Shown here in pieces: positions 5,401 to 61,000 of a stretch of DNA of 64,000 bases. A program made the position numbers and the translations under genes. The first letter of the stretch is position 1. Every line of letters starts with the position of its first letter. This stretch comes from Paraspadella gotoi (lineage: Eukaryota; Animalia; Chaetognatha). The stretch lies in assembly GCA_051294375.1 (NCBI GenBank), contig CM119269.1:23231497-23295496 (forward strand). Reading direction: 5' to 3'. The notes below the pieces were generated by a model that saw only the letters and a program-made list of their open reading frames with translations, did no database searches and had not been told where the DNA came from.

Positions 5401-6075
5401 AATACTGACGACGACGATGAAGACGACGATGACGACGATGACGACGTTAACTACGACGATGATGATAACGATGATGACGACGACAACGATGACGATGACG
5501 ACCGGGACGACAGAGACGAGGACGACAACAATAAAGACATTGTAGTGGTAGTATTTCATACCCCGCTACTCGTCCGGGAATCAGCAGCACCTATGGCGCC
5601 GGAGGTAGCACGAGCTCCTCCCAACCCAAAGGACTCGGGTTCGCGCCCTGCTGATTCACACAAGTAAAATCGGGACGGGGCGTCTAACCCACCTGTAGTG
5701 TCGGACTACAGCCCGATCCGGCATCGTCTTCTACAACATCGATAAAGATGACAGTTATGACGATAATGACGACAACGATGAAAAAGCCGACCACGACAAT
5801 GAAGACGACGACGATGATAATGACGACAGCGACGACGACGACGACGACGACTACGAAGTCAGGATCCACGGAGAAAACTTTTCAACTCGAGGGAAAAAGT
5901 TGAGGGATTTTGAGGTCGAAAGGTGGAAGAAGAGAGAAGGGGGAAAGAGAGAGAGAGAGAGAGAATGGAATGGGTTTTCTTTGAAAAAAGATTCGTTTAA
6001 CCAGAAGAAACGAGACTTCATCTTCAGACAAACGAAAACATGGATTTTTGTTGTTGTTGTTGTTGTCGTTTCCCG

Positions 6076-19900: not shown

Positions 19901-22900
19901 ATGAAAAAAATTGTTGAGAGCGTTTTCGTCGGCGGAGCCACTGGGGAAAAACAGCAACTCGAAAACGGTTATCCAATTTTTGCACTATTTTCCCAGAGCG
20001 CCCCGTTTCTGTTGCTTTATCCTTAAATATTTTTTTAAATTTATAACCTAAATTATTACTCTATTTCCTAACCTCAATCCCTAATCTTAATCCTAAACGC
20101 TAACCCTAAATATTTATACTTAATTTTGTACTTTAACCTTGAACCTTAAACCGTAATCATTAACCCTAATCTTTAACCCTAATCACTAACCTAAACCTTA
20201 ATCTTAATAACTAACCTAATCCCAAACTTAATCTGTAACCCTGACCTCTAACTTAATCATTAACTCTGGAAATTAACTTAATACCGAGTTTAAGATAAAA
20301 AGGGGCGTTCTGAGTAAATAAGGCCGTTTTTTCTTACTCGAATTTTAGACTTTTATAACGATGGCGGCGGCGGCGGCGGCGGCGGCGGCGGGAGCGGCGG
20401 CGGCGACGGCGGCAGCGGCAGCGGCGACTTCATCAAACGGATCGTCGAGAGATGCTCTTTGAAAATCTTGCGCACGACTTTGCTAGGAATTATTCTCTTG
20501 TTTCTTTTTGCAGGTATGTATGTATATTTTTTTACATTGTGTATACATGGTTTATATTGTTTTTCATCTCTTTCAAGTAACATTGAAAATATAAATCCCT
20601 GCCCAAGCATCAAAGGACCTTTTTCCTTAAATGCTAAAATTAAGAAAGATAAAGTTTTCTCTATTTTATACAGGGTTTTTGACAGGGTTTATGACAGGGT
20701 TTTTGACAGGGTTTATTACGAGAGAATAGTTTATCATACTAGAATAAAATTAAAATAATATTTCTAATTTACTGAATCTTAGCTTCTGATCGATACAAAG
20801 TTTGATAAAAATCTTTTTTAAAATTTTAATATTTTTTTTCCCACAACAAATTAGGTTCATAATTAATAGTTCATAGTTAATAGTTCATAGTTAATGTTCA
20901 TAATTAAACCATCAAGTATATATAATTAGTTGTTAAACATTCTAATTCTTAAATTTTATTCACATTTTCTTAAATTCTCCAATCTTATTTTTAAAAGGTC
21001 TCATTCATTTCTGGTCTTCCCCGGGAGGAGGACAAATCTTCATCTCAATGAAAGATTCGCTGCTGAAAATAAAATCTTCCGCGGATGAAATCATGAACGT
21101 CAATAAATTTGGGAAATGTCCCTCCAGACGGTGGAGGTTCACTGGGCCTCCAGGTGGGTTAGTAATGGGTCATTTAACACTGGTCCATTCAATCAAAACT
21201 GTTCATTGATCAGAGTCAGGAACACTGGGAGTTAACTGGAGTTGTGATTGGAGCTACGATGGTCATTCTATGTATTATTTCCTTGTAAATTTGATGGAGG
21301 CCATAATCAACCAAAGCCAGCTAAAATTTAACTTGTTTTTGGAAGGAGAAATGAGAATGAGAAAAGAGAATTTGTTGATAAGATAAGTTAATTCTCGCAT
21401 TGGCTGAAAGTATGAAACAAATCTTTAGAATAAGATAACATTTTTAAAGTGAATAACGCATTAGTGGGCTGAACATGACTTCTGTAACGTCTTGAACCCC
21501 CTCTAGCAGCCATGGAACACATTGAGCTCACGGGTCACGTCTGACATAACAATCATTAATTGTGGGGTGAGGAATTCTCTTCAAAATAAGCTCAAGCGAG
21601 TATTTTTTTTTAATTCTTGAACCCAACAGGAATAGATTCAAGCTGCTATCTGTACAGTAGAGAGCCAATGACTTTTGAGAACGCGCGAATTTTCTGCAAA
21701 CGTATGGGCGGAGATTTAGTTGCTATTGAATCAGCAGATGAAGATCATTTCGTTCAAAATGAATTAGGCATAAAAAGTAAGACTCCAAATACAATTTTTA
21801 AAATTGACTAAAGTAGTATATATGCATGATAAAAAATTTAGTAATGGTTTTATGGTATTTTAACCAAATTTGTCAAAGAAACGACCTATTTTGTAAACTA
21901 ACTCAAAAATTATGTATTTTGATAATTCCCTCTACTTTAAGGGTATTCGAGCAAACCTGCATGGATCGGAGCGACTGATGCTAATGAAGGAAGTGTTTGG
22001 GTTTGGGTAAGCACTGGGGAAGTTCTTCCCTATGCCAATTGGGAAACTAAAACAGCGACAGATCAGAAAGTAAAAACACCGCACTGCGCAACTATGGAAA
22101 TGGTGCCATATAATAGAAAGGACACCTGGCGCAAAGAAAGTTGCAACGAACTCCGTCTGCCCCTCTGTGAATTTTCAATCAAATCAAACACTCTGAATGA
22201 TAAGGACAAGGACTCGACTGAAAAGAGCATCTGCCCGCGTCCCTCTTCAACATCTTGTTATGTGCCAGTAGCATCACGTCTCAGTTGGCGAAAGGCGGAA
22301 CAAATTTGCATGATGAAGGGAGGGTATCTGGCAACCGTTGATTCCATGGAGGAGGAACACTTTTTGATGAACGTCACAAAAGGTGGGAAACATTTCAAGG
22401 AAGATTTATAGACTAACAATTGATTTAACATGATTGTATTTTCAATTGCCACTGCAGATTTTTTATCTAAACTTTCGGAAAAGCAAAGAAAACTAATTAC
22501 TGATTCAACTTGGTTCGTTGGTGCCAAGACTGTTAATGGGATTTGGAGATGGTTTAGTAATCAAAGAAAACTCTCAGACAGGCAAGAAAATTCAAGCCAA
22601 TTCTAACGTAGACTTTTCAATAATTAGTCTAAGCATTGTTTTAATACAGATTTCACAAGTCACTGGATAAATTTTATTTAAATCCAAACATAACCTCATG
22701 TTTAACTTTGGATCCAAAAATCAGTAAGAAATATGATGTTTGAATGTTTTGAATATGTTTTCAACATTTAATGTATTTATTTGTTCTCTTTTAATTCAGG
22801 ATCCACGAATACACTATGGTTTCCTCAATCATGTGAACATCTAAAACCTTTAATTTGCGAAGTTCCAAATCCAGATATAAAAATGTCAGAGGTTGTCAAT

Positions 22901-23957
22901 ATGACTTGCTTTTTTTTAATATATAAATATGACTAAAGAATCAGTATCTTTTAATCAACAAATAACCTAATGAACAATTGTTTATTGATCCTTTTTGTTT
23001 CCTTAGATACTTGATGAGTTCAATTCTCCTAACCACACCCAAGGATTTGCCTTTGAGTCTGATTGCCCAACTGATGATGGTTGTTACATTGCAGTTCTGA
23101 CAGAAACAAGCTGGAGCAATGCTCGACGTCACTGTGCAACGCTGTTCAAGGTAAAGAAATTCACTGTGCAACCTTCATTCAACTGAGTCATTGTTGTAAT
23201 CTTTAAAAGGGGCCCTGAAAAACCAGGTAATGTGACCATAAACTAAAAGCAAACAGTAGCAGCCTAGATTTAATTCATTTCTCTAAAATTGAAATGAATA
23301 TTAAATAATAAATGAATAATTAAATGTTTTATTTCTGAACATATTGATCTAAAAATGAAAGAATGTCATATGTAAATCAGATGAATGAAATCGATGAACG
23401 AATCAACACCAGTTTCTTCGCCACACCCCCCCCTTAGATTGTTGGAAATCTGGCTTCTTTTGAAACCAAACAGTCAGGAACTGCATTGGAGCGAATGTCA
23501 AAACGAAATCCTTTACTGAAAGAACTGGATTTTTGGACATCGGGAAGAAAAGCGCTTGGCGAAACGCGGTATTCAAAACCAGCAAAATTGGAAGCTAATA
23601 ACACTGACGCTCGGTAAGGGGGTTAGGCTAAGAATAATAATTGCTTCACCTTTATTGAGTCGAAAAATATTTTGTTTATAAAATTGAATTAAATCTCGCA
23701 GCAATTCTTCTTACAACTGGATCCAAATAGCTTATGATAAAATGTTCAACATACAAGGATTGAAAATTGTTAGTCGACCTTACGCGGATGATGACCAATG
23801 CGTCTTTTTAAGATACTCGGACGATGAGAAATACGATACTTTTTTTCGTCGTGCTGAAAATTGTGGTGATTGGAAAGCTTTTCTCTGTGAATTCACTTCG
23901 ACTCTTGATAAAATTGTGGATTCAACTGAAAAAATCTCTAGATTCGGACTTGCTTAA
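19901..23957 (+). CDS. Type-II membrane protein with three C-type lectin-like domains (paralog 1)
   Basis: Exons 19901-19967, 20349-20513 (TM TTLLGIILLFLFAG), 20998-21153, 21630-21776, 21942-22382, 22458-22581 (GC donor), 22650-22723, 22800-22891, 23007-23150, 23438-23613, 23702-23957. CTLD motifs SCY..TFENARIFC..GGDLVAIES, AWIGATD, W..ESC..PLCE; SWRKAEQIC..GGYLATVDS, WFVG; SWSNARRHC..GNLASF, FWTSG, AFLCE. Confidence 0.88.
19982..20325. mobile_element. MITE-like element filled with degenerate TAACCC repeats, occupying most of intron 1
   Basis: TIRs gcactattttt-cccagagcgcccc / ggggcgttctgagtaaataaggcc around (T)AACCCT-like repeats. Confidence 0.6.
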
Positions 23958-24300
23958 AACAGACAAAACTTTCAAATGTCTAAAAGAAAAAAAAACAGTG
24001 TTAGGCCCTATTTTCCAAAGTTGCCCTTTTTCAGTTTAGGATTAATTGACTTTTTTAGTTTGGTTAAGTATTAAGAGAAAAGTCCAGGTTTTGCACTAAG
24101 GATTGTCCTACTGTATACCCAGAAATCAGGTTCACTTTAGTAATACTTAATAATGCTTATAGCGCGCGAAAAATTCAAAATTATGATGTAAATTATCATT
24201 TATTAGAATTCTAAATATAGTTTCTTTAGTAAATAACAATTTCAGTTTCTTGCTCCATATTCTTTATGTGTTGTTTGAACTTAACGATCTGCATTGAACA

Positions 24301-27300
24301 ATGGACACAACCGGAGTTATGAATTTTAGCAAAAAAGTCAAAAATGGTTAGTTTTTGGGGTTTTTTTTGCACGTCTCAGAATTTTACAATACAAAAGAAA
24401 ATATTTTAACAAAACTACGTTTTTTCTTTCAGAATTTCATCAGATGACAGGAAGATTAGAAAAAAAGAATGGATTTCAAGTGAAAAAGAAAAATAACTTC
24501 TGCTCCGCAAAAATTTTACAAATTCTTCTGCTCTTTGTTATTCTGCTTTTTATTCTCACCGGTGAATAATTAATATTTTATACATTGAAATAATTTTCAT
24601 TCTTTTGACCATTTACTATTTGCAGCCTTGGTGCGTTTTTGGAGTTTCAGAAGAAGTGATCGATTTTCTGTTGTATCAGAAATTAATTCTGTTTTAACTC
24701 AAATTCAAATTTCGATGAGAAATTATTCGATCGTGAATCAACATAGTTTGTGTCCCTCCAATCAATGGACTCACGTGGGACCACCTGGTAAGTTAACAAA
24801 GAACCAAGAAGGTAGGGTCACATTGAATTCATGCCAAACCAATATTTATCCCTTTAGGTTATGAATCCAGCTGTTACAAAGTGGCACACTCTAAAATGTC
24901 TTGGTCGGATGCACGAAAATATTGTCAAAATTTGGGTGGTGATCTCATCTCGGTCGAAACCAAAAACGAAGAGGCTTACATACAAAATTTACTCAAAACT
25001 TCTGGTCAGAAAATTTCTTTCGAGTATTTACTTAAACATTACATACTGCAATAAATAAAATAATAAATGAAAATTTCAAGATTATGCAAAAACATTTTGG
25101 ACCGGAGGCACCAACGCTAACGAAGCTCAATCTTGGGTCTGGATTGCAACGGGCCAACTCGTCCAAAACGCTTGGCACGAAGTTGAGGCTGAAAAATTGA
25201 AAGGCAACACAGACTGCGCTTTCATCACGAAGAGATATAAACAATTCTTGGACGCTGGTGACTGCCATGATCTTCACGCTCCCATTTGTGAAGTCATGAT
25301 TGAAAAACGGGAATTTGAACGACATTATGAAACTCGTTGTCCCCATGAGACGGCGAGTTCGTGCTACATTATAGTCAAGGACAAACTGTCTTGGGATGGA
25401 GCAGAAAAAGTCTGTTTAAAAAAGGGCGGTTACTTGGCAACCGTGGACTCGGTGACGGAAGAAAATTTTTTTATCACCGTAACTGAAGGTTTGGATAATT
25501 TAATATCAATGTTAAAGATATTTTGCCTCATGTCGCGCTTTCCCTTTTTTGGTCAATATTTTTAACGGCCATTTTGAGTTAATTTCAGTCGTGCTTGTTA
25601 TTAAAACTCACAAAGTGTTTTGTTCGAAGAAACATCGTTTTTACGAAATAAAACGTTTCAACCTTTATTACACAACTTTTTCTTGGCGACTCACGTTGAG
25701 ACAATTCGTCCGCGCTGGCATGAGAATAAGCTTGTTTATTGAATGAATATATAACTTTTTATTAGTTGTAATAATTATATTTTCCTTCATGTTTAAAGGA
25801 TATAAAATTGGTCTGGATGGAATGTACTACAAGGAGCATAAACATTATTTGAAATTTGACGAAGCGCGGAAGGTCTGTGAGAGAGAAGGAGCAGTCATCG
25901 CAATGCCATCGACAGAAACGACCCAAGAATTTCTAGGAAACTTTCGACAAATTTGGTTGGGCATCGTTGATGAAGATGGCGACGGGAACTTTACATTCAT
26001 TGATGGATCAAAGATAGAAAAGTACTATTGGTCTAAATACAATAGAGATGAAAAATATCCATGTGTTGTGAAGGCTTACCAATCTCAGTGGATAAGCTAT
26101 CGATGTGACTTTTGGAACAAGTTTGTTTGCCAGCGTAAAGGTCAGTCTATTGAGTGTAATAAACTATATTATGCAGCGAGTTGTAGAACACCACCTTGAC
26201 CATTGTTTTTAGTGATAAACTTTTATTTCGTATATACAACTTTTTAAAGTTTGTAATAGTCAAAGTAGTTTTTTTAATGAGCTTAGTCAAAATTAAAATT
26301 GAGTACTTGCTCAAACAAAATTGTATACATTTTTGAGGATTGATGAATGAATGATGAATGAATGAAAGATGAAAAAAAAAATTAAACTATAGAAATTAAT
26401 TATTGAAATTTTTAATTTTAAGACTAGATTTTAGGGCGTTGAAGAATAACGAAATATAACAAATCAAGTGAGTACATAGCTATTTTAGTGTAATAAAGTC
26501 TGTAGAATTCGATGATGATAACCATTTTCTTGTATAGTCTCATCTTCTTTGTCGGAAATGGCGATTTTTGCAGCATATAAGGTGTTATTAAAATGGAGCA
26601 AACATTGTAGAGTATAAGAAACTCAAATTATTAAGATTTTATAAAAGCCATATTTAACTTGCATAATATGAAAATAAAGACCCATATAAATATTTTGGTA
26701 AGTTTATTTACAAATTTATATTTTTTATTATAGTTTGTTAGCTATATTTATTATAAATAATAAAAATTAAGCTAAAGTGAAAAAATAAAAAAATTAAAAT
26801 TTTAAAACCGGATTTGAATTCCTTACAAAAAGTTGATATAAGAAAGTATAATCCATTTTAAAAAATTCTTTCATTAAGTAGATTAAAAATATTAAAAATT
26901 ATTATTTTTGTTTAATTTTTCAATTTTTGGCTTAAAATTATAGTTTTTCTGAATTTTGACCTAAAGCCAACAGTGAGATGCCCCATTCAATGGGCATCAC
27001 AGGCAACCCGGCTGTTGCCATAATATCAACTTTTTGCAAAGAATGCAAATCCATGAAAAAAATTTTGAAATTATTATTTTTTAACTTTAACCTAATTTTT
27101 ACTCATAATTATTAATAAATATAGTTAACTAACTTTTTATAAAACATAAAATTTAGAAATAAACTTACCAAAATATTTTTATAAGTCTTTATTTTTATAG
27201 TTCAAAAGCTCATATAAATTTTATAAAATTTTAATAATTTGATTTATCATAACTTATAATGCTTTTGCTATTTATAACAATTTTATATACATTAAAAACC

Positions 27301-30300
27301 GTCATTTCCGACAAGAAAGATAAAATTATACAAAAAAATGGTCATCACAATCGAATTCTACAGACTACATTATACTAAAATGCTATGTACCTCAGTTGAT
27401 TTGTTATATTTTGTTATTTTTCAACGCTCTACTAGATTTAGAGAGCCTGTAAAATAGCGTCTACACAAAGTACAATTATTTTTTAAATATTTTGATGATA
27501 AGTGGGTCAAAAATAAGAAAAACTGTACAGGTTGTTATTACTACTATCTAGAAAGAAAGTATATGACATTTTTAATAAAAGATATCTACTCAAAAACTTA
27601 TTTGATTTAAAACAAATTAAAATGTTTCTAAATCTACATTGAATTTTTTTTAAGTAGCTTCCTTCTATTTTTTTGTAGGCCAAATCGTTTAGAAGTTACA
27701 GGCAAAAAAATATAGTTACTTCAAATAAAAAATGGCGAAAAAAATGTATTTAATTTTCTACCATTTTTGGTATTTAGTTATTTATATTTATTTTAAATAG
27801 AATTAATTATTTTTTATATTTTTTTAATTTGGTAATGCTAAAGGCCTTGCACCTCTTTCTGGTTTAAAAAAGTCTTATTATAGCTCTAAGAAAAGAGGGA
27901 AAGATGCGCAACATCAACATCGGGGCTGAGAAGAATTCTTTTAAAGATGTCAAAAAACATTTCACTGTCATACCTCAATTTGCTGTATAAGAACATACCC
28001 AGTCAAATGCAGTCAGTAGTCGATGCCAAAGAAGGGTATACCAAATATTGAGAATATTTACCCATGTTTTGTATACTCTTTATTAAATAAATGAATTATG
28101 TCATATACTTTTTTCCTAGATAGTATTTTATTAAATTTTATCAGTTTTTTTGTATTTTGACTGAAAAAAATATGATAATTTTTTAAACTTGTAATAATTG
28201 TTTAACTTTTCTTTTTCTATCAGAATACATTCAAACTTTTAAGATTAACAAAAAACTTATCATTGTATAGTACTATTATAGTTTAATAGCAACTATAACA
28301 GGCCTAAAACTTCAAGACAAAAGTATGGAAACTCTCCCATGCTTATTTTAATTTTGTACTTCTGATGCATGTAAGTTTTCAAAGTGATTAAAAAACTAAA
28401 AAGTATAAAACATATTCAAATTGACAACAATAGTCTGAGAGTATAGACAGGGAAAAATCAATTATGTTTCAGTAAAAAAATACAATAAAATAATTTGTTA
28501 AACTGAAATTTTATTTCACATTTGCAAAATTTATCTTTTACAGTAATTCATTTGTTGTTTTTCCAAAAATCAATAATCCATTTTTTTTTCCACAGAAAAG
28601 ATCCCCATTCTTCCTGTAGCCTTCAAGAATGGTCAAGCCGGTGCAACGTCCACTGCCTACCACTTCTCCGCCAATAATGCGTTTCAACCTGCGGCTATAA
28701 GAGGGTGGAGAAACAATTACCGTCATTCCTTCCCGCAGACCATTTGGTATAAATTCAAGAAGGCGAAGAGGATCGTCCGCTTTGGTTTTTTGGGTGGAAA
28801 GTACAACCAAAACACGAGTCCTCAAAAGATTGAATTTGTCGCTTCCAATGATTGTGGCGATTGGAAAGTTTTGGCCAAAGAGACGATGAAATTCACCAGA
28901 AATGGAGAAGAAAAAGTCTTTAATGTTGAAGACAAAAATATTGGATACTTTTTCTGCTACGGAATCAGAGTTTTGAAGACAAAACGGTCAAGATATGTCG
29001 ATTTAGAAAATATCAAAATGTGGGATAGCTTCTCCGATGGTAAGTAATTAGTCATTTTACCAAAAATAAAATATAGTGTACTTGATATTAGGAAAAGGTC
29101 ATGAAAAGATGGGGTTAGAAGTCTTTTTACTATACCGTCTGAAGAATTACTCATGAAATTGTTTTACTCTAATTGTGTTCTCATTTTGCTCAATGGTTGT
29201 GACGTTAAGACTATTTTAGCTAAAGACATGAACAAACTCAATGTAGCTATCAATGATGGCAAAAAAAGAAATTTGGATTTAACAGATGGGAAAGTATTCG
29301 TGACTTATGTAGCTTCTTTGGTTACCAGGACATTTTCACTATGTTTAACAAATGTAGAAAAAATTGTATTACAAAGATCTATTTGTCGAAAAACACGGTG
29401 CTCAATGGAATAATTCCTTTCTCTACTATTTAATGAATTACAGATCTGGTCAAAAAAGCATTTTATTTCGTTATTAGAAGGAAAACAATACTTTTTAGGA
29501 CTCAGTTAATTAATACATTATCGGACCGCTTCCTTGCTATGAGGGAGAGAGTCTGTGCAAATATGAAGGGTTTTATAATTTTCTTGATTTTGACGAATGT
29601 CATGGCATTTTACTGCAAAATGTCCCTTTTCATCCTTCACCAGACATTTTTAATGATGTTGCAGTCAGGCAAGTTTCCAGGCACCACGATCCCATTTTCC
29701 TCATGACATTTTTGGGTGACTTTGGCTTTGTATCCAGGAACTCAATCCTCTTTGAAAAGTCGCTTATTCACTGTTGAATGACTGGCAACAATTCTTATTC
29801 TTTCCATTTTTTTCTCAACTGGCTTGCAGAAGCCTTTCAGTCTTGAGGTCATCGTCCTTGCTCTGTGGACATGCAAGGCCGCCTGGTTCCAACAGCTCGT
29901 CCAAGGTCTCCAATTGGTTTGAATTGGTTGACAACTCTGCAGATGGCTGAAAGAGAAAAATGAAACCCAGCCTTCAAAAGATTAACAATTTCAGCTTTCT
30001 TTTTGGGGTTTAGCTGTTTTGAAGTTTCCATGGTAAAAAATCACAAAAAAATAAAAAAACAAAGATGAATAAAAAATAAAAAAAAGAAATTGTAAAAAAA
30101 AAAGTCAATCCTTTTTTTATTTTAAAATATTTAGCCTAAAAACCTCGTCATGGGCTCGAATGAAAGATATTTGTCTTGGCTTTCAAAGTTTTAATTAATA
30201 GGACGACAGACAAGCGAGATATTAGGGGGTTTAAAGTTTAAACATTTTGACCAGATATCTGTATTCTGTTTTGTGTTTCGTTTTTTTTTGTTTCGACCTA

Positions 30301-39900: not shown

Positions 39901-42900
39901 AGTCCTGTGGTTCAACAGCCAGGACGTTCCACATGTTTGCTGAGGGCGTAATGAGGAATTACGGATAGTTGGTCCAATCGGTTCTGGTTTCTTACGTGCG
40001 GCCTTGCCCTGCGAGCAGGGCCACCTTAGGCGCCTTATCGCAGCAGGTATGCTAGATCGTATGGATGATACGTTTACCTCTGGTAGTCTGCCGCTTACTT
40101 GAGTGTCGCGGCAGTGTCCCACGTTTCACAATCTGGGTTATGTTTACTAAGATCACCAGCCTAGATTCGTTTTCTGACTGCGAACTTTTGGATCAACAGC
40201 CCTTTTTGCTTTTTAAAACCTAAGATTCCGTCTTTTATTCTGCATACTCGTGCATACCGGTGCGCACGTGAGTCTCTACTTTAAGGCTTTTCTTCTGGTA
40301 CGAAGAGTACAGTCGTATAACTTTTTCGTTGTTAGCACGCGTTCCTCTGTCTCAAGCTGTCCCTTTCTTCAATTGCGCCTTATTTCCAGAGAAAGTTAAA
40401 GAATTAGATTGAAATTAAAGAAGTTATTTGTGATAAGGGTTAGAGGTTAAGAAGTTAGGTTATAAATTACTCTTAATACTAATTAAAAGTATTGCTAGTA
40501 AACCGCTACGAAATATGTATGTAAAATGAGATTGAAGATCAATATTAAAAATTAAAGCACACATTTGTAATATCCCGGGTGCTGCCGGGTGCGGCGGGGG
40601 CTGGGTCTGGTGCTTGTATTGTTGTATACAAGGGTAAAATGTAAAAATGTAAAAAAATGTAGAAAAGGAGACAAGGAAATGACAATCCAATAAGGAAAAA
40701 GTCTACAGCAATGTTTTGNNNNNNNNNNNNNNNNNNNNNNNNNGAGAGAGAGAGAGAAAGAGAGATAGAGAGAGAGAGAGAGTGACGTCACTGTGTGTCT
40801 TCAATTCAGTACGCGCCATATAACATCTCGGATTCCGCCTACCAACAAGTAAATCTTACAAACGCCATTCGACATACGATGCCATACAACATGTGGCAAA
40901 CAAAAGATGCCAGCGAACCTTTCATCGTATTTTTAACCTTTTTTAAAAAATTTAGATAATTCAACTAAATAAAAATATTCTTTAAACAATATCTTTCTAA
41001 AATATTTTAACAACAGAAGAAAAAGAGAATGAATTTGTTATTGAACTCAATGTTGCGTGAACAATTTATCTCTCTCTCTCTTTCTCACTCACTCTCTCTC
41101 TCTCTCTCTNNNNNNNNNNNNNNNNNNNNNNNNNNNNNNNNNNNNNNNNNNNNNNNNNNNNNNNNNNNNNNNNNNNNNNNNNNNNNNNNNNNNNNNNNNN
41201 NNNNNNNNNNNNNNNNNNNNNNNNNNNNNNNNNNNNNNNNNNNNNNNNNNNNNNNNNNNNNNNNNNNNNNNNNNNNNNNNNNNNNNNNNNNNNNNNNNNN
41301 TCTCTCTCTCTTTCTTTCTCTCTCTCTCTCTGTCTCTCTCATTTCAATGCAAATTACGTGAAAGAAAATTCCTGATTTCTAATAAATTATTTTTGTGTTA
41401 GTAAAATCAAAGTCGGACGACTGTGTTAAGGGGATGAATTCTTCAGGGTCATTTTTACTTTACTGCTATTATTTATTGTATGAAATTAATTAATTAAACA
41501 AACTATCTTGCCCCTGACTTTGGACAGTCTTTGGTCCTTTTAAGGTTCCGCGTACAAACGTTGCATTTAGGAAAAAAACGGACTCTTTCCACTATTGCTT
41601 CCAATGTCCATTGTTACTTACAATATGATTAAACTTTCTACCACAACACAAAATAGACCGAACGAAGGCATTGTTAAAACATCTCCACGCGTTTCTAATG
41701 ATAAAAATAGGACCATTTTGCCACTTTAGCCAAAAAAATTATGTCCATTTTTGTCCATTTTACTTACGACTTCTGAATTTGAATGCAAGGAAAGTGAGAA
41801 AAAATTTTTATCTTTTGGAAAATCCAGTTCTTTTCTTATCTTCTTTACCTCTGGTAAATTTTATTAGGCTTAAATCATTTATAGTCTTGCCTATGAATTA
41901 ATTTTAAAGTTAACAAGGTCAAAAAAGTTGCAGTTTCAGTCTTTATCATAATTTTGTTAAACAAAAATTAAAATCAAATTGGTGAAATTAAACAGAAAAT
42001 ATAGCCCTATTGAATTAAGCTTTAACACCTATAAAATTTATTCAAAAAACTTTTTCTGGTTTAGCACAAATAATTTTTAAAGACGTCTTTTATAAATTTG
42101 TGGACTTTTGTGACTTGCCATTTTATTTTTTGATAAAGCAGAAATATTTTTCAACTCATTTTCATAGTTTTAAAAGATGAGGTAACATACTGCACCTTTG
42201 ATTTATATAAAAAAAAACCGCTTCCTTTTAATCCACTAGGATAAGCATCAAGGACTTGTTTTTTCTTCAAAATCGACAGCATTTTGCGAAATTTTCCGCA
42301 AAATCTGTCGATTTACTTAAAATTTGCTAGGCAACCCAAAATTGAAAGAAAAATCATGCGCTACTTTGATTTTCTTTCTTATAATGCAATTTTAAATATT
42401 TCTTATTGATTTTGCCTCAATGTAACGTATGAGTGAGAGAAAATAGGAAAGGGGAAAACAAGAAAAGGCAGAAGGGAGAGAATGAAGAAGAGGTGAAATG
42501 GCACCAAAAAAAAGCCAGAGCAAATGCGGAGAAAAAATAATGATGTGAATACAATGTGTAAGGCTAAGAAAAGACGGGAAAAAATGGAAAGAAAAAAAAG
42601 GGAGAAAAAAGGAATGAAATGAAAATGAGGAAAAAAAAGGTGAGGAAAGTGCTATGCAGTGAACCGAAAAAGGTAGGGCGCCAAAAAAACGGTAAGTGAC
42701 AGCGTGAGAAGTAAAGGAGGAAAGAGGAAGAGGAAAATAAAGTAATGAGAAGAAAGAAGAGGCAAAGAAAAATTATCAGGAAAGCGTATCATCAAAGGAA
42801 AAAATTGATCATTATAAGTGGCGTCTTACCTTAAAATATTGTTGTGTAAGTGTAAAAGACGATGCAGGATTCTTATATAGGAATTCTCGATTCTTTAAAA

Positions 42901-44313: not shown

Positions 44314-44441
44314 TTGCAATCCCATATGTGCTTCGGTTTCCATTAAAGTCAGTTTTCCTTTGAGATTCAGGTGCTGATGTAAATGTTAAAGTTTTTCGAT
44401 TAGTTAATGTAGAATGGAAGAGATTCACAAGTCGGTGATGC

Positions 44442-44711
44442 TGTAGTCGGGCATTGCCTAGTTTCACCCCTCTTTCAGTTGTGACCCGGTGGCTCATTGA
44501 GTAAAGCCATCAGCTCATGACCACTAGGTACTGGGTTCAATCCCAATCCGGTACCTACCCTGCGGGAAGAGTGAGGACGGCCGTAAGCCGCCTTGGGGGC
44601 GTGGCAAACCCTCAAGCCTGGTTCCAAGCCCAGGACCCGTTCCATGTTTGCTAGAGGGGGTTATAGAAATTACGGATAGTCATCTTCTGCCCACTTAGCG
44701 CCTTATCCACA
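44442..44711 (+). mobile_element. Solo LTR of tRNA-promoter/twister TRIM family
   Basis: TG..CA, TSD ATGC (44438-44441/44712-44715), A-box TGGCTCATTGAG, B-box GGTTCAATCCC, twister-like motif downstream. Confidence 0.8.
44562..44640 (+). ncRNA. Type-P5 twister-like ribozyme
   Basis: P5 GCGGG/CCCGU; GA-GGA pairs with UCC of L4 UUCCAAGC; U^AA at 44584; GCC; P3 UUGGGGG/CCCUCAA; P4 CCUGG/CCAGG. Confidence 0.75.
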
Positions 44712-45439
44712 ATGCTGATGTTGATACTGATGTTCACATCTGGTTATGTTTCTAACTCCAGCCTAGGAATTCGTGCGATTTTGGATCAACTCTTTTTTTA
44801 TTTAAAATCCTAAGATTCGTTTTTATTCTGCATACTCGTGCATACCGGTGCGCATAGTCTCTAACTTTATTTTCTTCTGGTACATCGTATAACTTTTTCG
44901 TTGTTCCACGCAGTTCCTTGTCTCAAGTGTCCCTTCTCTTCAATTGCGCCTTATTTTCCAAGAAATTAAAGATTAGATTGAAATTAAAGAGTTAGTTTGT
45001 GAATAGGGTTAGAGGTTAGAGTTAGAGTTATAAATTACTCTTAAATTACTATTAAAAGTATTGCTAGTAACCGCTACAATATGTATGTAAATGAGATTGA
45101 AGATCATATTTAAAATTAACCACACATTATGTAATATCTTGTATTGTTGTATACAAGGGTAAAATGTAAAAATGTAAAAAAAAATGTAGAAAGGAGACAA
45201 GGGAAATGACATCAATAAAAATCTACAGCAATGGTTTGATATTCTAAGAGAGACAAGAAAAAGAGAGAGAGAGAGAAANNNNNNNNNNGAGAGAGAGAGA
45301 GAGAGAGACGACCCCATCTAAAAGGCTTCCTTGTTTCTTTTTTTTTCCTTTTCTCAAAAGAGAAAAAGATTTCGTGGCGAAACTGAGATTCATGATATCA
45401 TGAGATATGAAAATGCATCTCTGTTTCTCTCTCTCTCTC

Positions 45440-46475: not shown

Positions 46476-46908
46476 TATAGTATATTTGTTGACAACAAGT
46501 AGTTGAATCAATACGTCCAACATTTCATACACATACAAACAGATAATTCATAAATTATAATGTTTTACAATTTAATAAGCAAACAACTTCATCATTGTTG
46601 TGTCTAAATCTTATTAGACGATATTATTTTTAAATAATAAAACAAATTATTAATCAGTTATTTTTTTAGAAAAATACTTAGTAGAAGAAGGAGCTAATTC
46701 AAATAATAATTTGAATATTTTAAGCATCTGAATTAGTATTCGTGTAATTACAATGGCTTCCACATTTGTTTGTCTTGTAGTCATGGCTTCCACGGTTTTC
46801 TTTCTCGTTGTCATGGTTTCCACAGTTGTTTACGTCGCTAACGACTGCCATTAGTCTCGTTCTTAAATTCTCTCTTCTTTTTTTTGTGACTCAAAATTTG
46901 TTTCTCAG

Positions 46909-47555
46909 TATGGTGGACTAAAAATCCACCAACCGTTCATCAGCGGCCATTGGTGCCGGAGGCAAGTCATTCGCCTCCCAACCCAAAGGTCCGGGGTTCT
47001 AGCCCGGTGGTTAAGAGGGACGGGGCGCTTAACCCGCCTGTAACATGGTGTTACAGCCTGATCCGAAGCTCAGGGACTGCTTATATTGAACGGTTCTGTC
47101 ATTAACACTTATCAATAATTACTGTCTCTTCATTGGTGAGCCCGACTTCCGAACACAACAGCAACAACAACACTTTCAGGCGACAGGCCTCAACCTGGCA
47201 ATGCACTTTCCGCCCACAACACATCAGGCGACATGCCTCTACTTGGTGACAAACTTTCCATCAACAACAACAATTCACTGAAGAGACGCAACAGACTTCT
47301 CCCTACGGGAGGGGGGGATGTATGGTCGACTAAAAATCCACCAACCATTCATCAGCGGCCATTGGTGCCGGAGGCAAGTCATTCGCCTCCCAACCCAAAG
47401 GTCCGGGGTTCTAGCCCGGTGGTCGTCTGGCAGTTAAGAGGGACGGGGCGCTTAACCCGCCTGTAACATGGTGTTACAGCCTGATCCGAAGCTCAGGGAC
47501 TGCTTATATTGAACGGTTCTGTCATTAACACTTATCAATAATTACTGTCTCTTCA
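46909..47555 (+). mobile_element. TRIM (miniature LTR retrotransposon) A with tRNA-like promoter and twister in each LTR
   Basis: LTR1 46909-47132 (lacks initial TG, 11-nt deletion), PBS TGGTGAGCCCGAC 47134-47146, PPT GGGAGGGGGGGA, LTR2 47319-47555 (TG..CA), TSD TCAG. Confidence 0.88.
47430..47503 (+). ncRNA. Type-P5 twister-like ribozyme (LTR2 of TRIM A; partial copy 47011-47080 in LTR1)
   Basis: P5 GCAGUU/GACUGC; GA-CGG pairs with CCG of L4 UCCGAAGC; U^AA at 47453; P3 UGUAAC/GUUACA; P4 CCUGA/UCAGG. Confidence 0.78.
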
Positions 47556-47946
47556 TCAGTTTCGTTTTAGCTTTAGTTTTATTTGTTTTTTTTTGTTTTG
47601 TTTTGTTTGTTTTAGCTTTAGTTTTGTCTTTCTCGTTTTATTTTAAGTTTGATTTTAGTTTGAATGTAGTTTATATGTCAATATTAAAAAAAGGAAAATA
47701 GTATTTTAAATTAAATATATATCACTTGAGAATGATCTCATTTTGAGCATTTAACTTGTAGATCTTTTATTGTTGTATAAATATATTTTAATCTCTCTCT
47801 CTGTCTTAATCTAATCTCTTTTTAATCTCTCAGTTTTAATCTTGATTTAATCTCTCCCTATAACTTAATCTTAATCTAATCTCTCCCTTTAATTTAATCT
47901 TAATCCTATCTCTCCCTCTCTCTTAATCTTAATCTAATCTCTTGTT

Positions 47947-48013
<67 letters not shown>

Positions 48014-48407
48014 TTCATTTCAATTTGATCTCTCCAGGCCATTTAAATTATCTATCCGCCATTACGACTTTATCTCTGCCTCTCTCTTTCTTTTTCTTTT
48101 TTTTCTTTCTGTATCTTTATCTTTCTTTTTTTCTCACTCACTCCCTCTCTCTCTCTCATTCTTTCTCCTTCTCTCTCTCACTCTCTTTCTTTCTCCAAGT
48201 CCCTAACTTTATTCCCTAACCCAAACCTTAAACCTAATTTTCAACTAATAAAAAATTACTTAATTCCAAATATAAAATAGAAGAGGGCGTTTTGGGAAAA
48301 TGAGGCCAAAAATTCTTAGAGTCATACTCTTTGTGAAAGCTCACGCAACAGAGAAGGAAAACTTCTAACCCAATATTTATTCAGTTAAAATTATCAATTC
48401 AATTCTG

Positions 48408-48569
48408 TGACTCTATTGCAGAACTATATTGCAGAACTCTATTGCAGAACTCTATTGCAGAACTCTATTGCAGAACTCTATTGTAGAACTCTATTGCAGA
48501 ACTCTATTGCAGAACTCTATTGCAGAACTCTATTGCTGAACTCTATTGCAGAACTCTATTGCAGAACTC
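48408..48569. repeat. 14-bp minisatellite (AACTCTATTGCAGA), about 11 copies
   Basis: Direct tandem units visible. Confidence 0.9.
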
Positions 48570-49924
48570 TAACAAAAACTCAAATTCGATTTTTTTTTCA
48601 GATTCATACGAAATTTAAAAAAAAAATGTTTGAAAAAGTGCGGGGGGCCTTTGTTGGAAAAAACTGCCACAGGAACTAAACTGCTACTCGACAAAACCAA
48701 AAAAAAACAAAACCCAAAAAAAAAAGCTCAAAAGTGCCAAAAAACAAAACGAACATAAGAAAAACAACTACCGCTCCCTTCTCAAAAAACATTCCTAAAA
48801 TGTATAGGTAAGTGTCAATTTTATAACTTCATACAACAAATATGAAAATTATATATTCATTTAATGAATATGCAATTTTTCCCTGCTGACTTTGGAGAGG
48901 CTATAGGTTTAGGCCTCCCCCCTCTTATAAGATGATAACATAGCATATCATAGCAGGACCTTCTTGTAAGAAGATAACATAGAATATCATTGCAGGACCC
49001 TTTTCTCACAGTCTTGTTGAAGAACTGCTGGAGTAAAGAGCTTCCCTATTAATGAAGTGGTGTAATTTTTTTATAGTCTTAAAAATGTTTAAATTGACCA
49101 TAAAAGGAACATCCGTATGAGCTTCAAACAAAAAAGGACAACAAGCCTTGATAATTACTGCAAGGATTCCATCGTGATAAAAGGTCTCCCTTTGGGCCGC
49201 AGTAAGGGGCAGTGTCCATGGGAGCGACCCGAGTGAGCAGCAGTTTAAAATTCTTAAAAATTGGTCCTAAGGAAAACTTGTTTTATAGCTTTGTGGTGTT
49301 ACCCTTTCAGATATTCCCCCGGGAGCAATAAATAATTTAATTTTCATGGTTAAACCGAGTACCCTTAGGGCCCATACCTTCCCCTAGGAGTCACCCATCC
49401 AGCTGCCCCCCTCCCAGGGCGGTGCCTTTTTTGAGCGACGTTATATCTCAATTACTGAAAGCGTCTTTTGTTTTTGTCGGCAACGACGTCGTTTCCTGAA
49501 TCGGCTGCCGCCATCCTCTGACTTAATCTCGCGTTTTCTCATTTTCCAGCGAACACATTATGGCGATTTCTTGCATCATCTGTCTTATCGCTGTCGTCGT
49601 TACCACCTGGACACTGCTCATCGTTATGGAGGTCAGAGGAGAGGGTGGAAGGGGGAAAGAGGGAGGAAAGAGGGAGGAAAAAGAAAAGGAAGAAGGAAAG
49701 GAGTGAAAAGGGAAAGGGGAAAAAAAGAAAATGAGATAAAAGGAAAGTCAGGGCAAAAAAGAATGACAAAGGAAAAGGGAAAAGAGGAAGGATTAAAAGA
49801 AATGAGTTAAAAGGAAAGGGAAGGAAAAAAGTAAAAAGGGGGGAAAAAGGAAAAGGGAGAAAAAAAAGGAAAAGAAGAATAAAAGAAATAGAGAAATTGT
49901 TCAATCATTCATTCATTCGTTATT

Positions 49925-58026: not shown

Positions 58027-61000
58027 TCAAGGCAATCCCGCAGGATAATGCTGAATATAAGGCTTGGGCACTTTTTGTACCTCCTCCGCCGGTCGTGACC
58101 CAAGCTTTAACAATCTGGCCTGTTCCTTCTCAAGCTGAGTCAGCTTGTCCCTCTCGGCTCTGACCCGCTCCTGTTGCCGCTTCAGTCCTAGTAGCAACTC
58201 CTCCCTCTGTGTCTGAGCTTGCTTCAGTTCAGCCCTCATCTGCTGGTAGTGCACTTCCAGCTCCTCTTCTTCCTGGCTACACTTGATCATCTCGTTGTTC
58301 AGGTGCTGCGAGTTCTGCTTGTGCACGTCCTGGAGCAGGGCGCCCATTTTGTTCAGCTCCTGTTCTTCCTTGCGACAAACTCGCTCCACTTCCTTCACAG
58401 CGGCCGTCAGTTCCTTGGAGGAGAGAGAGAGAGAGAGGTGATTGGTTAAGATAGGATTCTTCATCATCATCATAATTATCATCATCATTTTTATTATCAT
58501 CATCATCATCATCATCATCATCATTATCATCATCATCAACTATAAATCAATTACATTATTTCGGCTTTATTTTCTCAGAAAGCCGGAATTTAATTTTAAT
58601 CTTAATATTTATAGAAGAGTTGAAATGGATTCAACAACGATTTTCTTGTTCAAGCCTTCATCATGCTTGAACAAGAGCCGAAACATTTCCGTTATTATTA
58701 TTGTTTCAAATAAATCATTGTTGTCTGGTGGTCCTATTGTAGATTCGAACCCGAGATTAACGATCCACTCGGATCCATGCTAACTGATTAGCCATCTCAG
58801 ATTGATATATTTCTTATTTTGAAACTTCCTTATTATCAATTAAAATCATTTTAAAACTAGACAAATGAACAACCTATTTTTCAAGCAAATCAGCTGACTC
58901 AAGAGAAACTAATTCTTTAGTTCTGCTTGGAAAACAATTTCACTTAATCACAATTTAGTAACTCAACTGGAACCCATTATCGTTACTAATTTATTACTTA
59001 TTAATTATTTATGATGTTTGCCATTTTACTTGTTATTAATTTAATAATTAATTGATTGATTTATTTTGCTGTTTAGTCATATAGATATTGTAATTGCTTG
59101 ATGATAAAGCAATGGAATATCTATATGCTTTGATTATTTTATTAAGGTTGCTTTTTATTCATTAACCAAGCAAGTTGGTTTAAAAGCTTTTAATTCAAAG
59201 CTTGTAAACTTTGCAATCATTCCGAGATCCAAGACGCTCGTCAACTTCGTTGGATGACGCGCCACCTCAAAGTGAATTCAGGCCGCGCCATCTACACTAT
59301 CACCACAGATGGATTAAAGCTGTTTCTTTCACAGCGCCTCAGTGGCTCAGTGGACTAATGCACCATCCCAATGTGCGTCCCTGGTTCGAGCCCTGAGGTT
59401 GTCATGTAGAAAGTGGGATGGACCGGGTAACCCGCCTGTAGGCATGGGCCTACTGCCAGATCCAAAGCTCTGGACTACATGAACATGCTGTCTCGCTGTC
59501 GCCACGAGGTGACACCGCTGCGGGTGTGGCGCCCTGTAAAACCAGCCTCTTCAATGGTGAGCCCGACGTGATCCCGAACACGCAACCCGGCTGATAATAC
59601 TCCTCTGCCCTTGATGTGGTTTGAGCTACACAGCTGCACTCAAAGCAGGGCCACCAGAATGAAGAGAGGTTCAGCGGAGAGACATGCGCTTCATCCCCCT
59701 GCTTCGTACTCTCATATGCGAGAGTCCTGGGGGGGCTGTCTGGTGGTCCTATCACCACAGATGGATTAAAGCTGTTTTCTTTCACAGCGCCTCAGTGGCT
59801 CAGTGGACTAATGCACCATCCCAATGTGCGTCCCTGGTTCGAGCCCTGAGGTTGTCATGTAGAAAGTGGGATGGACGGCGGGTAACCCGCCTGTAGGCAT
59901 GGGCCTACTGCCAGATCCAAAGCTCTGGACTACATGAACATGCTGTCTCGCTGTCGCCACGAGTGACACCACCGCTGCGGTGTGGCGCCCTGTAAAACTC
60001 AGCCCTCTCAGTTGAATCCATTTCAAACTCGTCTCTAAATCTCAACCACAACGAAACAAAAGGATTATAATATCTAATCTTAATATTTACAGTATATAAG
60101 GTGATAGACAGACGCGGGTCTATTACCCCCTCCTTCTCATTCACCTCCTCTTCATCCTCCTCCCAGGGATTCGGGGCCGCGTTCACGAGATTCAGTTCAC
60201 CTTTCTCTCTTCTCCTACTCGTCTCTCTCCCTTTTTTTACCCTCATTTTTGTCTTCATATAGATTTTCTTTCCATCAATATATTAGTTTCCCACATTCTC
60301 GTCACTTTACTTCCGGTTAGGATACCTTTTCAGAGATTTAACCTAAACCTGTGTTTAAATTTAAAACTCAATCAATTACCCTAATCTAAAATTTTAACAT
60401 TATCTTAAACTCAAAACCTGAATACTTATCCATAATTTTTAACCCTAACCCCTAAACATAAACTTCTGTCCCTAACCCTAATTCCTAATCATAATTGCTA
60501 ACCTCATCCCTAAGAAAAATTATAAACCTAATTAATTAATCCCTAACCTTAACTTTAACCTAGTTCCCAATTAAAGATAAAATGGGTCGTTCTTGGAAAT
60601 TAATGCTTTTCTTCTCACCTTCTCCACAGTCTCTCCTTTTTCCACAGCCCTCATCACGTGATTGACATGGTCGTCATGTTCCCTAAACTTGGCGTGGAGA
60701 TCCCTGCGTTTGAAATCCTCCAAGGCCCTGGCTTCCTTGGCATCTCTCTCTTTTCGTCTTCCAGCCAACTCGCTTGTCCGCGATTTGAGGCGTCGCTTTG
60801 AGTGAAGTTCGATCTCCGTCTCTAGGGCGACCTCTTTGAAGCGGACCTTGGGAAGGGTAATACATCATTTCATTTACGGTTATTAGTTACTATTTATAAT
60901 TAATACTAATATATTATTGTAAAAATGATTTAAAATTATCTTAAAGACTTTTTTCTTTGGCACAACCAAAATTAAAAGATTTTTTTTTAATTAAAAATCC

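Follow-up and report, generated by a model that had tools for sequence, protein, structure and literature searches.

In a 64,000-nucleotide stretch of the genome of the chaetognath Paraspadella gotoi (assembly GCA_051294375.1, contig CM119269.1, positions 23,231,497 to 23,295,496 of the forward strand; hereafter the window, numbered from its first letter), we identify a 647-bp non-coding long terminal repeat (LTR) element, element A (46909-47555), whose LTRs combine a tRNA-like module with a predicted twister-type ribozyme fold. Two further families in the window, B and D, have the same layout as read from their sequences: a tRNA-like module, then a P5-permuted twister-type fold. It is quite probable that the fold is a variant twister that actively cleaves at the predicted U^A sites; activity is likely, and not certain, because the twister is non-canonical, with a short P2 and a palindromic P1. 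By analogy with known systems we propose, with about even confidence, that element A is a terminal-repeat retrotransposon in miniature (TRIM) of the Helenus layout carrying a variant twister, and that the RNA between its two cuts is circularized and reverse-transcribed by a Gypsy helper. The parts of element A are as follows.

46905-46908, + strand: left target-site duplication TCAG; family 5' ends accumulate at 46909
46909-47132, + strand: LTR1 (TA...CA), lacking 11 nt found in LTR2 at 47422-47432
47134-47146, + strand: primer-binding site (PBS) of tRNA-Trp type, 12 of 13 nt by eye
47307-47318, + strand: polypurine tract (PPT), directly before LTR2
47319-47555, + strand: LTR2 (TG-TA...CA); family 3' end at the equivalent site 47132
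47556-47559, + strand: right target-site duplication TCAG, read from the sequence

The LTRs are identical at 222 of 224 aligned bases, and no long open reading frame is present on the + strand, where all three frames are closed by stops. An earlier note on this DNA had listed two near-identical LTRs, a PBS, a PPT, a TCAG duplication and no coding capacity, all of which could be located. The reference for the PBS was the tRNA-Trp / Gypsy-32_NVi PBS in Fig. S2 of PMC10886601 (papers are cited by such numbers, and statements drawn from them refer to the parts of each that were available). With these 11 nt, LTR1 has lost the end of the acceptor helix as well as most of P5's 5' strand.

The termini of family A lie where the earlier note had placed them, with the correction that LTR1 starts with TA rather than TG, and the TA start is the commoner one. 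LTR2 reads TG-TA after the PPT. In public sequencing run X1, 66 loose contig ends fall before 46909 and 16 before 46908, and run X9, tentatively an RNA run, has 14 before 46909; behind 47132 there are 165 in X1, 40 in X9 and 1 in X10. TA...CA appears to be the norm for the family, because public contigs mostly begin at 46909. At the other end of LTR1, CA is followed by one base and then by the PBS at 47134. A TA-start integration despite TG-TA after the PPT, together with this single base, has the look of asymmetric end processing.

Family A is present in many copies: 9 of the 13 public runs listed (three studies, one organism) contain at least half of the element's words, the richest of them perhaps being where the window itself comes from, and 18,552 contigs of run X1 map onto the stretch. 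Summed depth over element A in that run is 0.3-3.6 million versus 157-243 in the left flank, a figure that is not a copy number. Run X11 contains a single 110-nt piece and was left out. The allele with the 11-nt deletion seen in LTR1 is rare in the family: depth in run X1 is 6,502 at 47010 versus 3,033,777 at 47426. The internal region contains two imperfect 46-nt direct repeats (47176-47269, 76%) with a small hairpin in each. Regarding self-priming, the complement of a 10-mer of the PBS was not found on the + strand of the window.

The predicted folds of element A, with the helices (P), pseudoknots (T) and L4 of the complete copy, are the following.

47017-47080, + strand: LTR1 copy of the twister-type fold, with an intact core and a damaged P5; predicted cut 47030/47031
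47430-47503, + strand: complete P5-permuted twister-type fold of LTR2; predicted cut 47453/47454
47430-47434/47499-47503, + strand: P5 of the LTR2 fold
47440-47441/47456-47457, + strand: P2 of the LTR2 fold
G47442-A47443, + strand: catalytic residues of the LTR2 fold
47444-47446/47486-47488, + strand: pseudoknot T1 of the LTR2 fold
47447-47452, + strand: palindromic P1 of the LTR2 fold
U47453^A47454 A47455, + strand: predicted cleavage site of the LTR2 fold
47459-47460/47491-47492, + strand: pseudoknot T2 of the LTR2 fold
47461-47479, + strand: P3 of the LTR2 fold
47480-47484/47493-47497, + strand: P4 of the LTR2 fold
47485-47492, + strand: L4 of the LTR2 fold

The strand order, mapped by hand to the P5 permutation, is P5, P2', G-A, T1', linker, U^A-A, P2, T2, P3, P4, L4, P4', P5'. 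The twister hallmarks stand in P5-permuted order at the places first proposed for them, and the shuffles and three-family covariation described below back the fold. Both predicted cuts could be reproduced in the sequence, as could the span of 423 nt between them. The proposed loss of the 5' strand of P5 from LTR1 is borne out by the 11-nt deletion; the substitute P5 there reaches a pair probability of only about 0.07 in context. With that strand mostly lost and the substitute helix improbable, this copy of element A is probably impaired in LTR1. All catalytic bases are unchanged in family A among the 40 of 59 variant rows listed for run X1, where the commonest changes fall in the P3 loop and in the linker before P5.

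Are these folds confined to a single family? The window holds three further relatives.

59297-60010, + strand: element B, a second two-LTR family, found by blastn within the window
59297-59553, + strand: LTR1 of element B, first 12 nt replaced
59555-59572, + strand: PBS of element B, 17 of 18 nt of the tRNA-Trp PBS
to 59735, + strand: G-tract of element B
59737-60010, + strand: LTR2 of element B
59404-59482 and 59857-59937, + strand: twister folds of element B; predicted cuts 59428/59429 and 59883/59884
44442-44711, + strand: element D, a third family represented by a solo LTR (TG...CA), found by the pairing-based descriptor
44438-44441 and 44712-44715, + strand: target-site duplication ATGC of element D
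about 44562-44640, + strand: twister fold of element D; predicted cut 44584/44585, palindromic P1 at 44578-44583
5541-5712, + strand: fragment C, the 5' part of a related LTR (starts TG), found by blastn within the window, with a tRNA-like module and a twister fold broken off inside L4

Element B is 67% identical to A over the shorter LTR, and its predicted unit between the cuts is 455 nt; it has no recoverable target-site duplication because its 5' end has been replaced. Element D, whose fold stands directly behind its own tRNA-like module, is not detectable by blastn from A or B. Its 3' end matches the homology end of a copy at 21449-21518 (- strand), a decayed 3' part of a D-family LTR (79% over 72 nt) with neither tRNA module nor twister. 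Just downstream of the solo LTR lies a separate repeat (44733-44900 and 40125-40328, 75% over about 200 nt).

Across A, B and D, LTR identity is 59-67%, measured over the shorter sequence. A descriptor based on pairing finds five motifs in the window, every one of them on the + strand; dinucleotide shuffles of A LTR2 and of B LTR2, 20,000 for each, yield no motif. Searched as a sequence pattern, the motif occurs four times in the window and never in 100 shuffles. Pattern matches in metagenome contigs served as a negative control: all 17 matches to the conserved letters lack P3 and P4 together, the best P4 having 2 bp, and model R1 gives at best 14.9 bits there (23 of the 40 loci searched). The pattern has no match in viral contigs, and blastn against a phage collection gave no match. 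A custom covariance model, as suggested in the earlier note, was built from A and B alone (model R2); it recovers C at E 4e-8 and D at E about 1e-7, the next best hit being at 0.13 (these E-values are rough). Element D was used in building neither the descriptor nor model R2. A weak match at 32767 (E 0.001 with R1, 0.19 with R2) was discarded, its core being absent.

The covariation check, also suggested earlier, points the same way. We aligned four rows from three independent families (A, B and D), leaving out A LTR1 and C, and excluded P5 from the count, since its strands are not aligned in register; P5 is present in each family with different letters (5-8 bp) and is damaged in A LTR1. In this alignment 97.1% of 68 cells are paired, and 7 of 17 pairs are changed on both sides, including P4 and two of the three pairs of pseudoknot T1. 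Such a pairing level is reached in none of 500 shuffles, and the best slid control has 51.5%; with few rows, and a structure read from the same sequences, the shuffle count is not a probability. T1 has all three pairs in all five complete motifs, in three different fully paired versions. The general base G, the A next to it, U^A-A, T2 and the AAGC of L4 are invariant across A, B and D. Two-sided changes in a pseudoknot, as read from these alignments, would be hard to obtain without a conserved fold.

The predicted promoter of element A is made up of the following.

46943-47015, + strand: tRNA-Gly(CCC)-like module of LTR1, predicted internal RNA polymerase III (Pol III) promoter, found by ARAGORN at -ps80 only
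46951-46962 and 46995-47005, + strand: degenerate A box and B box of LTR1, read from the sequence
47355-47427, + strand: tRNA-like module of LTR2 with a 7-bp acceptor-like helix, from ARAGORN at -ps80 and pair probabilities

At -ps80, ARAGORN reports tRNA-Gly(CCC)-like modules in all four LTRs of A and B; at -ps90 it reports none in these LTRs, at default settings it finds no gene in the whole window, and Rfam scans of A and B to E 10 give no tRNA match. The acceptor-like helix claimed for LTR2 is well supported, with a pair probability of 0.98-0.99 at six of the seven pairs (47355-47361/47420-47426). Among family A copies in run X1, C stands at 47423 in 22% and at 47426 in 66% of the depth, which turns G-U pairs of this helix into G-C. 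The A and B boxes that had been read in element A are canonical in B and near-canonical in D; in A itself that reading holds less well, as taken up below. No run of four T (T4) occurs on the + strand of A or D, the first one downstream of A lying in the flank at 47565.

A number of observations weigh against an active twister driven by a Pol III promoter. Family A has a degenerate A box and a single mismatch in its B box, and in LTR2 of element B the twister fold is preceded by a T4 run at 59775. The 5' strand of P2 is only 3 nt long (two pairs and a mismatch) in all five motifs, one pair below the four-pair norm given in PMC5408937, where adding or deleting a pair is suggested to disrupt the active site; the twisters of Schistosoma mansoni have a 4-nt strand here (PMC8501958). 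In phage contigs, true-looking twisters number 3-5 of 15 with a 4-nt-P2 pattern versus at most 1 of 8 with a 3-nt one. Rfam scans to E 10 give no twister match for A or B, so that the search with the Rfam twister-P5 model advised earlier came out negative for these two; element D aligns over its full length with Twister-P5 (RF02684) below threshold (16.3 versus 37.6 bits, E 0.48), with a one-column deletion on both strands of P2. Under nearest-neighbour folding, T1' and the P2 strand are preferentially sequestered in a competing hairpin (0.94 probability in A), which RNAalifold likewise picks. G47488A, which breaks a T1 pair, accounts for 14% of the depth in run X1; the 40 of 59 rows listed contain no change at its pairing partner. 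Lastly, P1 of B LTR2 is 8 nt long and non-palindromic.

Some of these points can be placed in context. About 2,600 natural twisters, crustacean ones among them, have been tested; the length or imperfection of P1 and P2 was unrelated to cleavage, and the pseudoknots, catalytic bases and L4 were sensitive to change (PMC11662667). The parts intolerant of change in that test are those intact in A, B and D. As a conserved structure, the competing hairpin was rejected, since none of its changes is compensated and three of the six pairs are broken in D. It may represent, as a model, an off state of the ribozyme. One phage contig (L036, about 101-149, - strand) has what may be a P1-type twister in which the 5' strand of P2 is 3 nt long and P4 has 5 bp; it is the only one of the 8 with a P4.

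In this variant P1 is a 6-nt linker from which no hairpin can form in the monomer, a feature that, like the 3-nt strand of P2, the first reading of the sequence had not flagged. The linker is self-complementary at 6 of 6 positions in A, C and D and at the central 4 of 6 in B LTR1, with cofold energies of -8.3, -6.3, -10.7 and -8.1 kcal/mol, and the chance of such a palindrome is about 0.05 per hexamer. On this model the palindromic P1 suggests cleavage as a dimer. Against it, a dimer may not be needed, because twisters without P1 cut at near wild-type rate, P1 being dispensable in vitro (PMC5408937).

How would such an element move? In the cycle that we propose, transcription would start from the tRNA-like module of LTR1, a likely internal Pol III promoter, and run through the element, and both twisters would cut at U^A. 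They would do so best as a pair, with P1 strands swapped between LTR1 and LTR2, because a palindromic P1 cannot close a hairpin. The 423-nt unit contains the PBS, the PPT and exactly one LTR's worth of sequence with no terminal repeat, and in the predicted fold its ends re-form P5 and stay together. Circularization of the unit would fall to an RtcB-type ligase of the host. A tRNA-Trp would then prime at the PBS, the reverse transcriptase of a Gypsy helper would copy the circle, crossing the junction without a first strand jump, and the Gypsy integrase would leave the 4-bp duplication. Gypsy elements of the CsRN1 clade are primed by tRNA-Trp. They are common in crustaceans (PMC3587641). Precedents exist for the separate steps: double cleavage, a circle and a Gypsy reverse transcriptase in plant LTR retrozymes (PMC4918200), and dimer-dependent cleavage with RtcB ligation in animals (PMC7229834). 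Because the family has very many copies, any circles that do form ought to be readily detected.

Among known elements the closest relative is Helenus (TRIMp3; Kojima 2024, PMC10886601), a non-coding TRIM of less than 1 kb with tRNA-like LTR sequence and A and B boxes. Element A shares with it the size (<1000 bp), two LTRs, PBS, PPT, a 4-bp duplication in an animal and a Gypsy-type PBS. Each Helenus feature that can be computed here was found, with duplications TCAG (A) and ATGC (D), in line with the TRIM anatomy proposed for element A. The tRNA-Trp PBS recurs in Helenus-2_SyJa, and TA-starting LTRs, as in family A, occur among the Helenus entries (PMC10886601). The difference lies behind the tRNA module, where most animal Helenus LTRs have a T-run (by eye) and ours have instead 80-160 nt with the twister fold. 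Pol III transcription is unproven for Helenus itself (PMC10886601). In the available text of that paper the terms "twister" and "self-cleav" do not occur and "hammerhead" occurs only in a reference; no twister was seen by eye or by term search in its published animal Helenus consensus sequences, nor by term search alone in the fungal ones, where motifs split across lines could escape.

The same supplement (DataS1.fa, PMC10886601) contains a parallel case. In Helenus-2_SyJa-LTR and Helenus-2_SyUm-LTR, from Synergus wasps, a complete type III hammerhead core lies directly 3' of the tRNA module, with a GUC site, three helices and complementary loops 1 and 2 (all by eye); the paper passes over it. 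These are the only two Helenus entries in the available supplement with the exact tRNA-Trp PBS 11-mer; their internal regions contain T4 runs. That two ribozyme classes occupy this position in elements sharing a primer speaks for a genuine requirement for self-cleavage. The authors of PMC7761336 may already know of the wasp case, since they mention insect elements with type III hammerheads as in preparation. In the same data set, Ajax-1_NGe-LTR and Ajax-1_LiLo-LTR show a likeness to the L1/P2 half of the present twister variant, but the general base is replaced by C and the LTR has no proper L4 loop; the likeness is due to chance or marks a decayed relative.

Plant LTR retrozymes (Cervera et al. 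2016, PMC4918200) have the same non-autonomous LTR plan, with a self-cleaving motif in each LTR, PBS, PPT and 4-bp duplication, and a unit-length RNA without an R region, as predicted for element A. They differ in their type III hammerhead and tRNA-Met PBS and in that no tRNA-like promoter is described for them in the available text; circles of 600-1000 nt have been shown for them, whereas the 423-nt circle of element A is a prediction. By its sequence, element A follows the logic of an LTR retrozyme but falls outside that class, having a twister in place of the hammerhead and Trp in place of Met, in an animal. The non-LTR retrozymes of metazoans (Cervera and de la Pena 2020, PMC7229834; PMC7761336) resemble it as animal units of 170-400 nt bounded by ribozymes. 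The amphibian ones have hammerheads with a one-pair helix and a palindromic loop cap that cleave as dimers, which recalls the palindromic P1 here (PMC7229834), and schistosome retrozyme repeats include tRNA. In contrast to element A, metazoan retrozymes carry type I hammerheads in tandem repeats and are stated to be without LTR, PBS and PPT (PMC7229834). No hammerhead was found by Rfam in A, B or D.

As to the ribozyme itself, the fold shares with the type-P5 twister (RF02684; PMC5408937, PMC11662667) the strand order, G-A, U^A-A, T1, T2, L4 U-NNN-AAGC, P3, P4 and P5. It differs in a P2 one step shorter, in the palindrome that replaces the P1 hairpin, and in remaining below the Rfam threshold. 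The twister T-variants of Perere-3 (Liu et al. 2021, PMC8501958) likewise serve a retroelement and have a P3 with a similar start, but Perere-3 is a non-LTR (RTE) element with a single ribozyme of type P1 and 4-bp P2 at its 5' end. Exact short motifs of our variant do not occur in the available S. mansoni T-variant supplement (PMC8501958).

Several other explanations have to be weighed against the circle. One of them, a serious if rather doubtful competitor in either of its forms, retains the active twister and takes as template a linear RNA cut at one LTR only and copied by ordinary reverse transcription. With a cut in LTR2 only, cleavage rather than a Pol III terminator would set the 3' end (terminal repeat R being the tRNA module plus half a twister, 88 nt); a cut in LTR1 only would form the 5' end of any read-through transcript, as at the head of Perere-3 (R being 47031-47132). 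By sequence logic such products would retain a terminal repeat and require no ligase. A and D are without a terminator, and most published animal Helenus LTRs close with a T-run just after the B box (by eye; PMC10886601). Twisters form 5' ends in S. mansoni (PMC8501958), and the competing hairpin could slow cleavage and so make single cuts common. However, with the same ribozyme in both LTRs kinetic luck would be needed, and the palindrome at P1 of A, C and D suggests that the two sites are cut as a pair. Palindromes act as dimerization signals in retroelement RNAs. This favours a further possibility, which we consider unlikely, namely that the fold is kept for a non-catalytic task such as dimerization and packaging through the palindrome, or end protection, and cleaves slowly or not at all because of its short P2. 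The 3-nt P2, the missing P1 helix and the Rfam scores below threshold fit such a role, but the unpaired catalytic G and A are invariant in three families in which paired positions vary, and two wasp Helenus families have a hammerhead (by eye) in the same slot.

It is very unlikely that the twister, captured once from an RTE element, a Penelope-like element or a short interspersed element (SINE), is carried as a neutral passenger of the LTR. P3 of A and B starts like P3 of the Perere-3 twisters (PMC8501958), and a SINE insertion was proposed by Kojima as the origin of Helenus (PMC10886601). The covariation contradicts a passenger, since neutral drift at 59-67% LTR identity would not keep 97% of pairs with seven two-sided changes; capture may be the origin of the twister, but not the reason for its upkeep. 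Hardly credible, finally, is a chance likeness of a GC-rich LTR, or a pairing register CCC/GGG that would leave no general-base G. The missing Rfam match for A could be read in this sense, as could the GGG-A that A and B both have before T1'. The empty shuffles of both LTRs and the lack of the helices in all 17 chance pattern matches speak against chance, and the alternative register is refuted by D, where AGT-GA with GCC on the other strand fits only the register with the catalytic G. Returning to paired cleavage and circularization, it is tempting to generalize: element A and the wasp families could belong to a Pol III-driven lineage of animal LTR retrozymes, mobilized by tRNA-Trp-primed Gypsy elements, with an interchangeable ribozyme slot (twister here, hammerhead in wasps) and with the short-P2 twister as an obligate dimer, so that the LTRs are cut only together and the ends pass to a ligase. 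We put this wider scheme forward tentatively, as a possibility rather than an expectation.

The combination of tRNA-like promoter, twister and TRIM had been thought undescribed, and no report of it was found. In the full-text literature covered, which includes few subscription papers, neither a twister within an LTR element nor an LTR retrozyme from an animal was found, and the same holds for the available parts of PMC13725137, PMC6765202 and PMC10085705. Twisters in retroelements are reported, in the searchable literature, only at the 5' end of RTE (non-LTR) elements (PMC8501958, PMC7761336). Retrozymes are defined by hammerheads; if it cleaves, element A would be an animal LTR retrozyme and would place a twister in a true LTR. 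A natural twister variant missed by Rfam would also imply that many more are hidden in animal repeats. For Helenus, the scheme offers a possible answer to how a Pol III transcript initiated within the LTR could acquire precise ends and serve as a template from which the complete LTR is rebuilt. If its cleavage does depend on a dimer, the twister would be a new tool part.

Elsewhere in the window, exons of a host gene with C-type lectin and F5/8-like domains lie at 21941-26199 and 28577-29047; Pfam finds C-type lectin domains in two of the six window proteins tested. A minisatellite with a 13-nt unit occupies 48396-48570.
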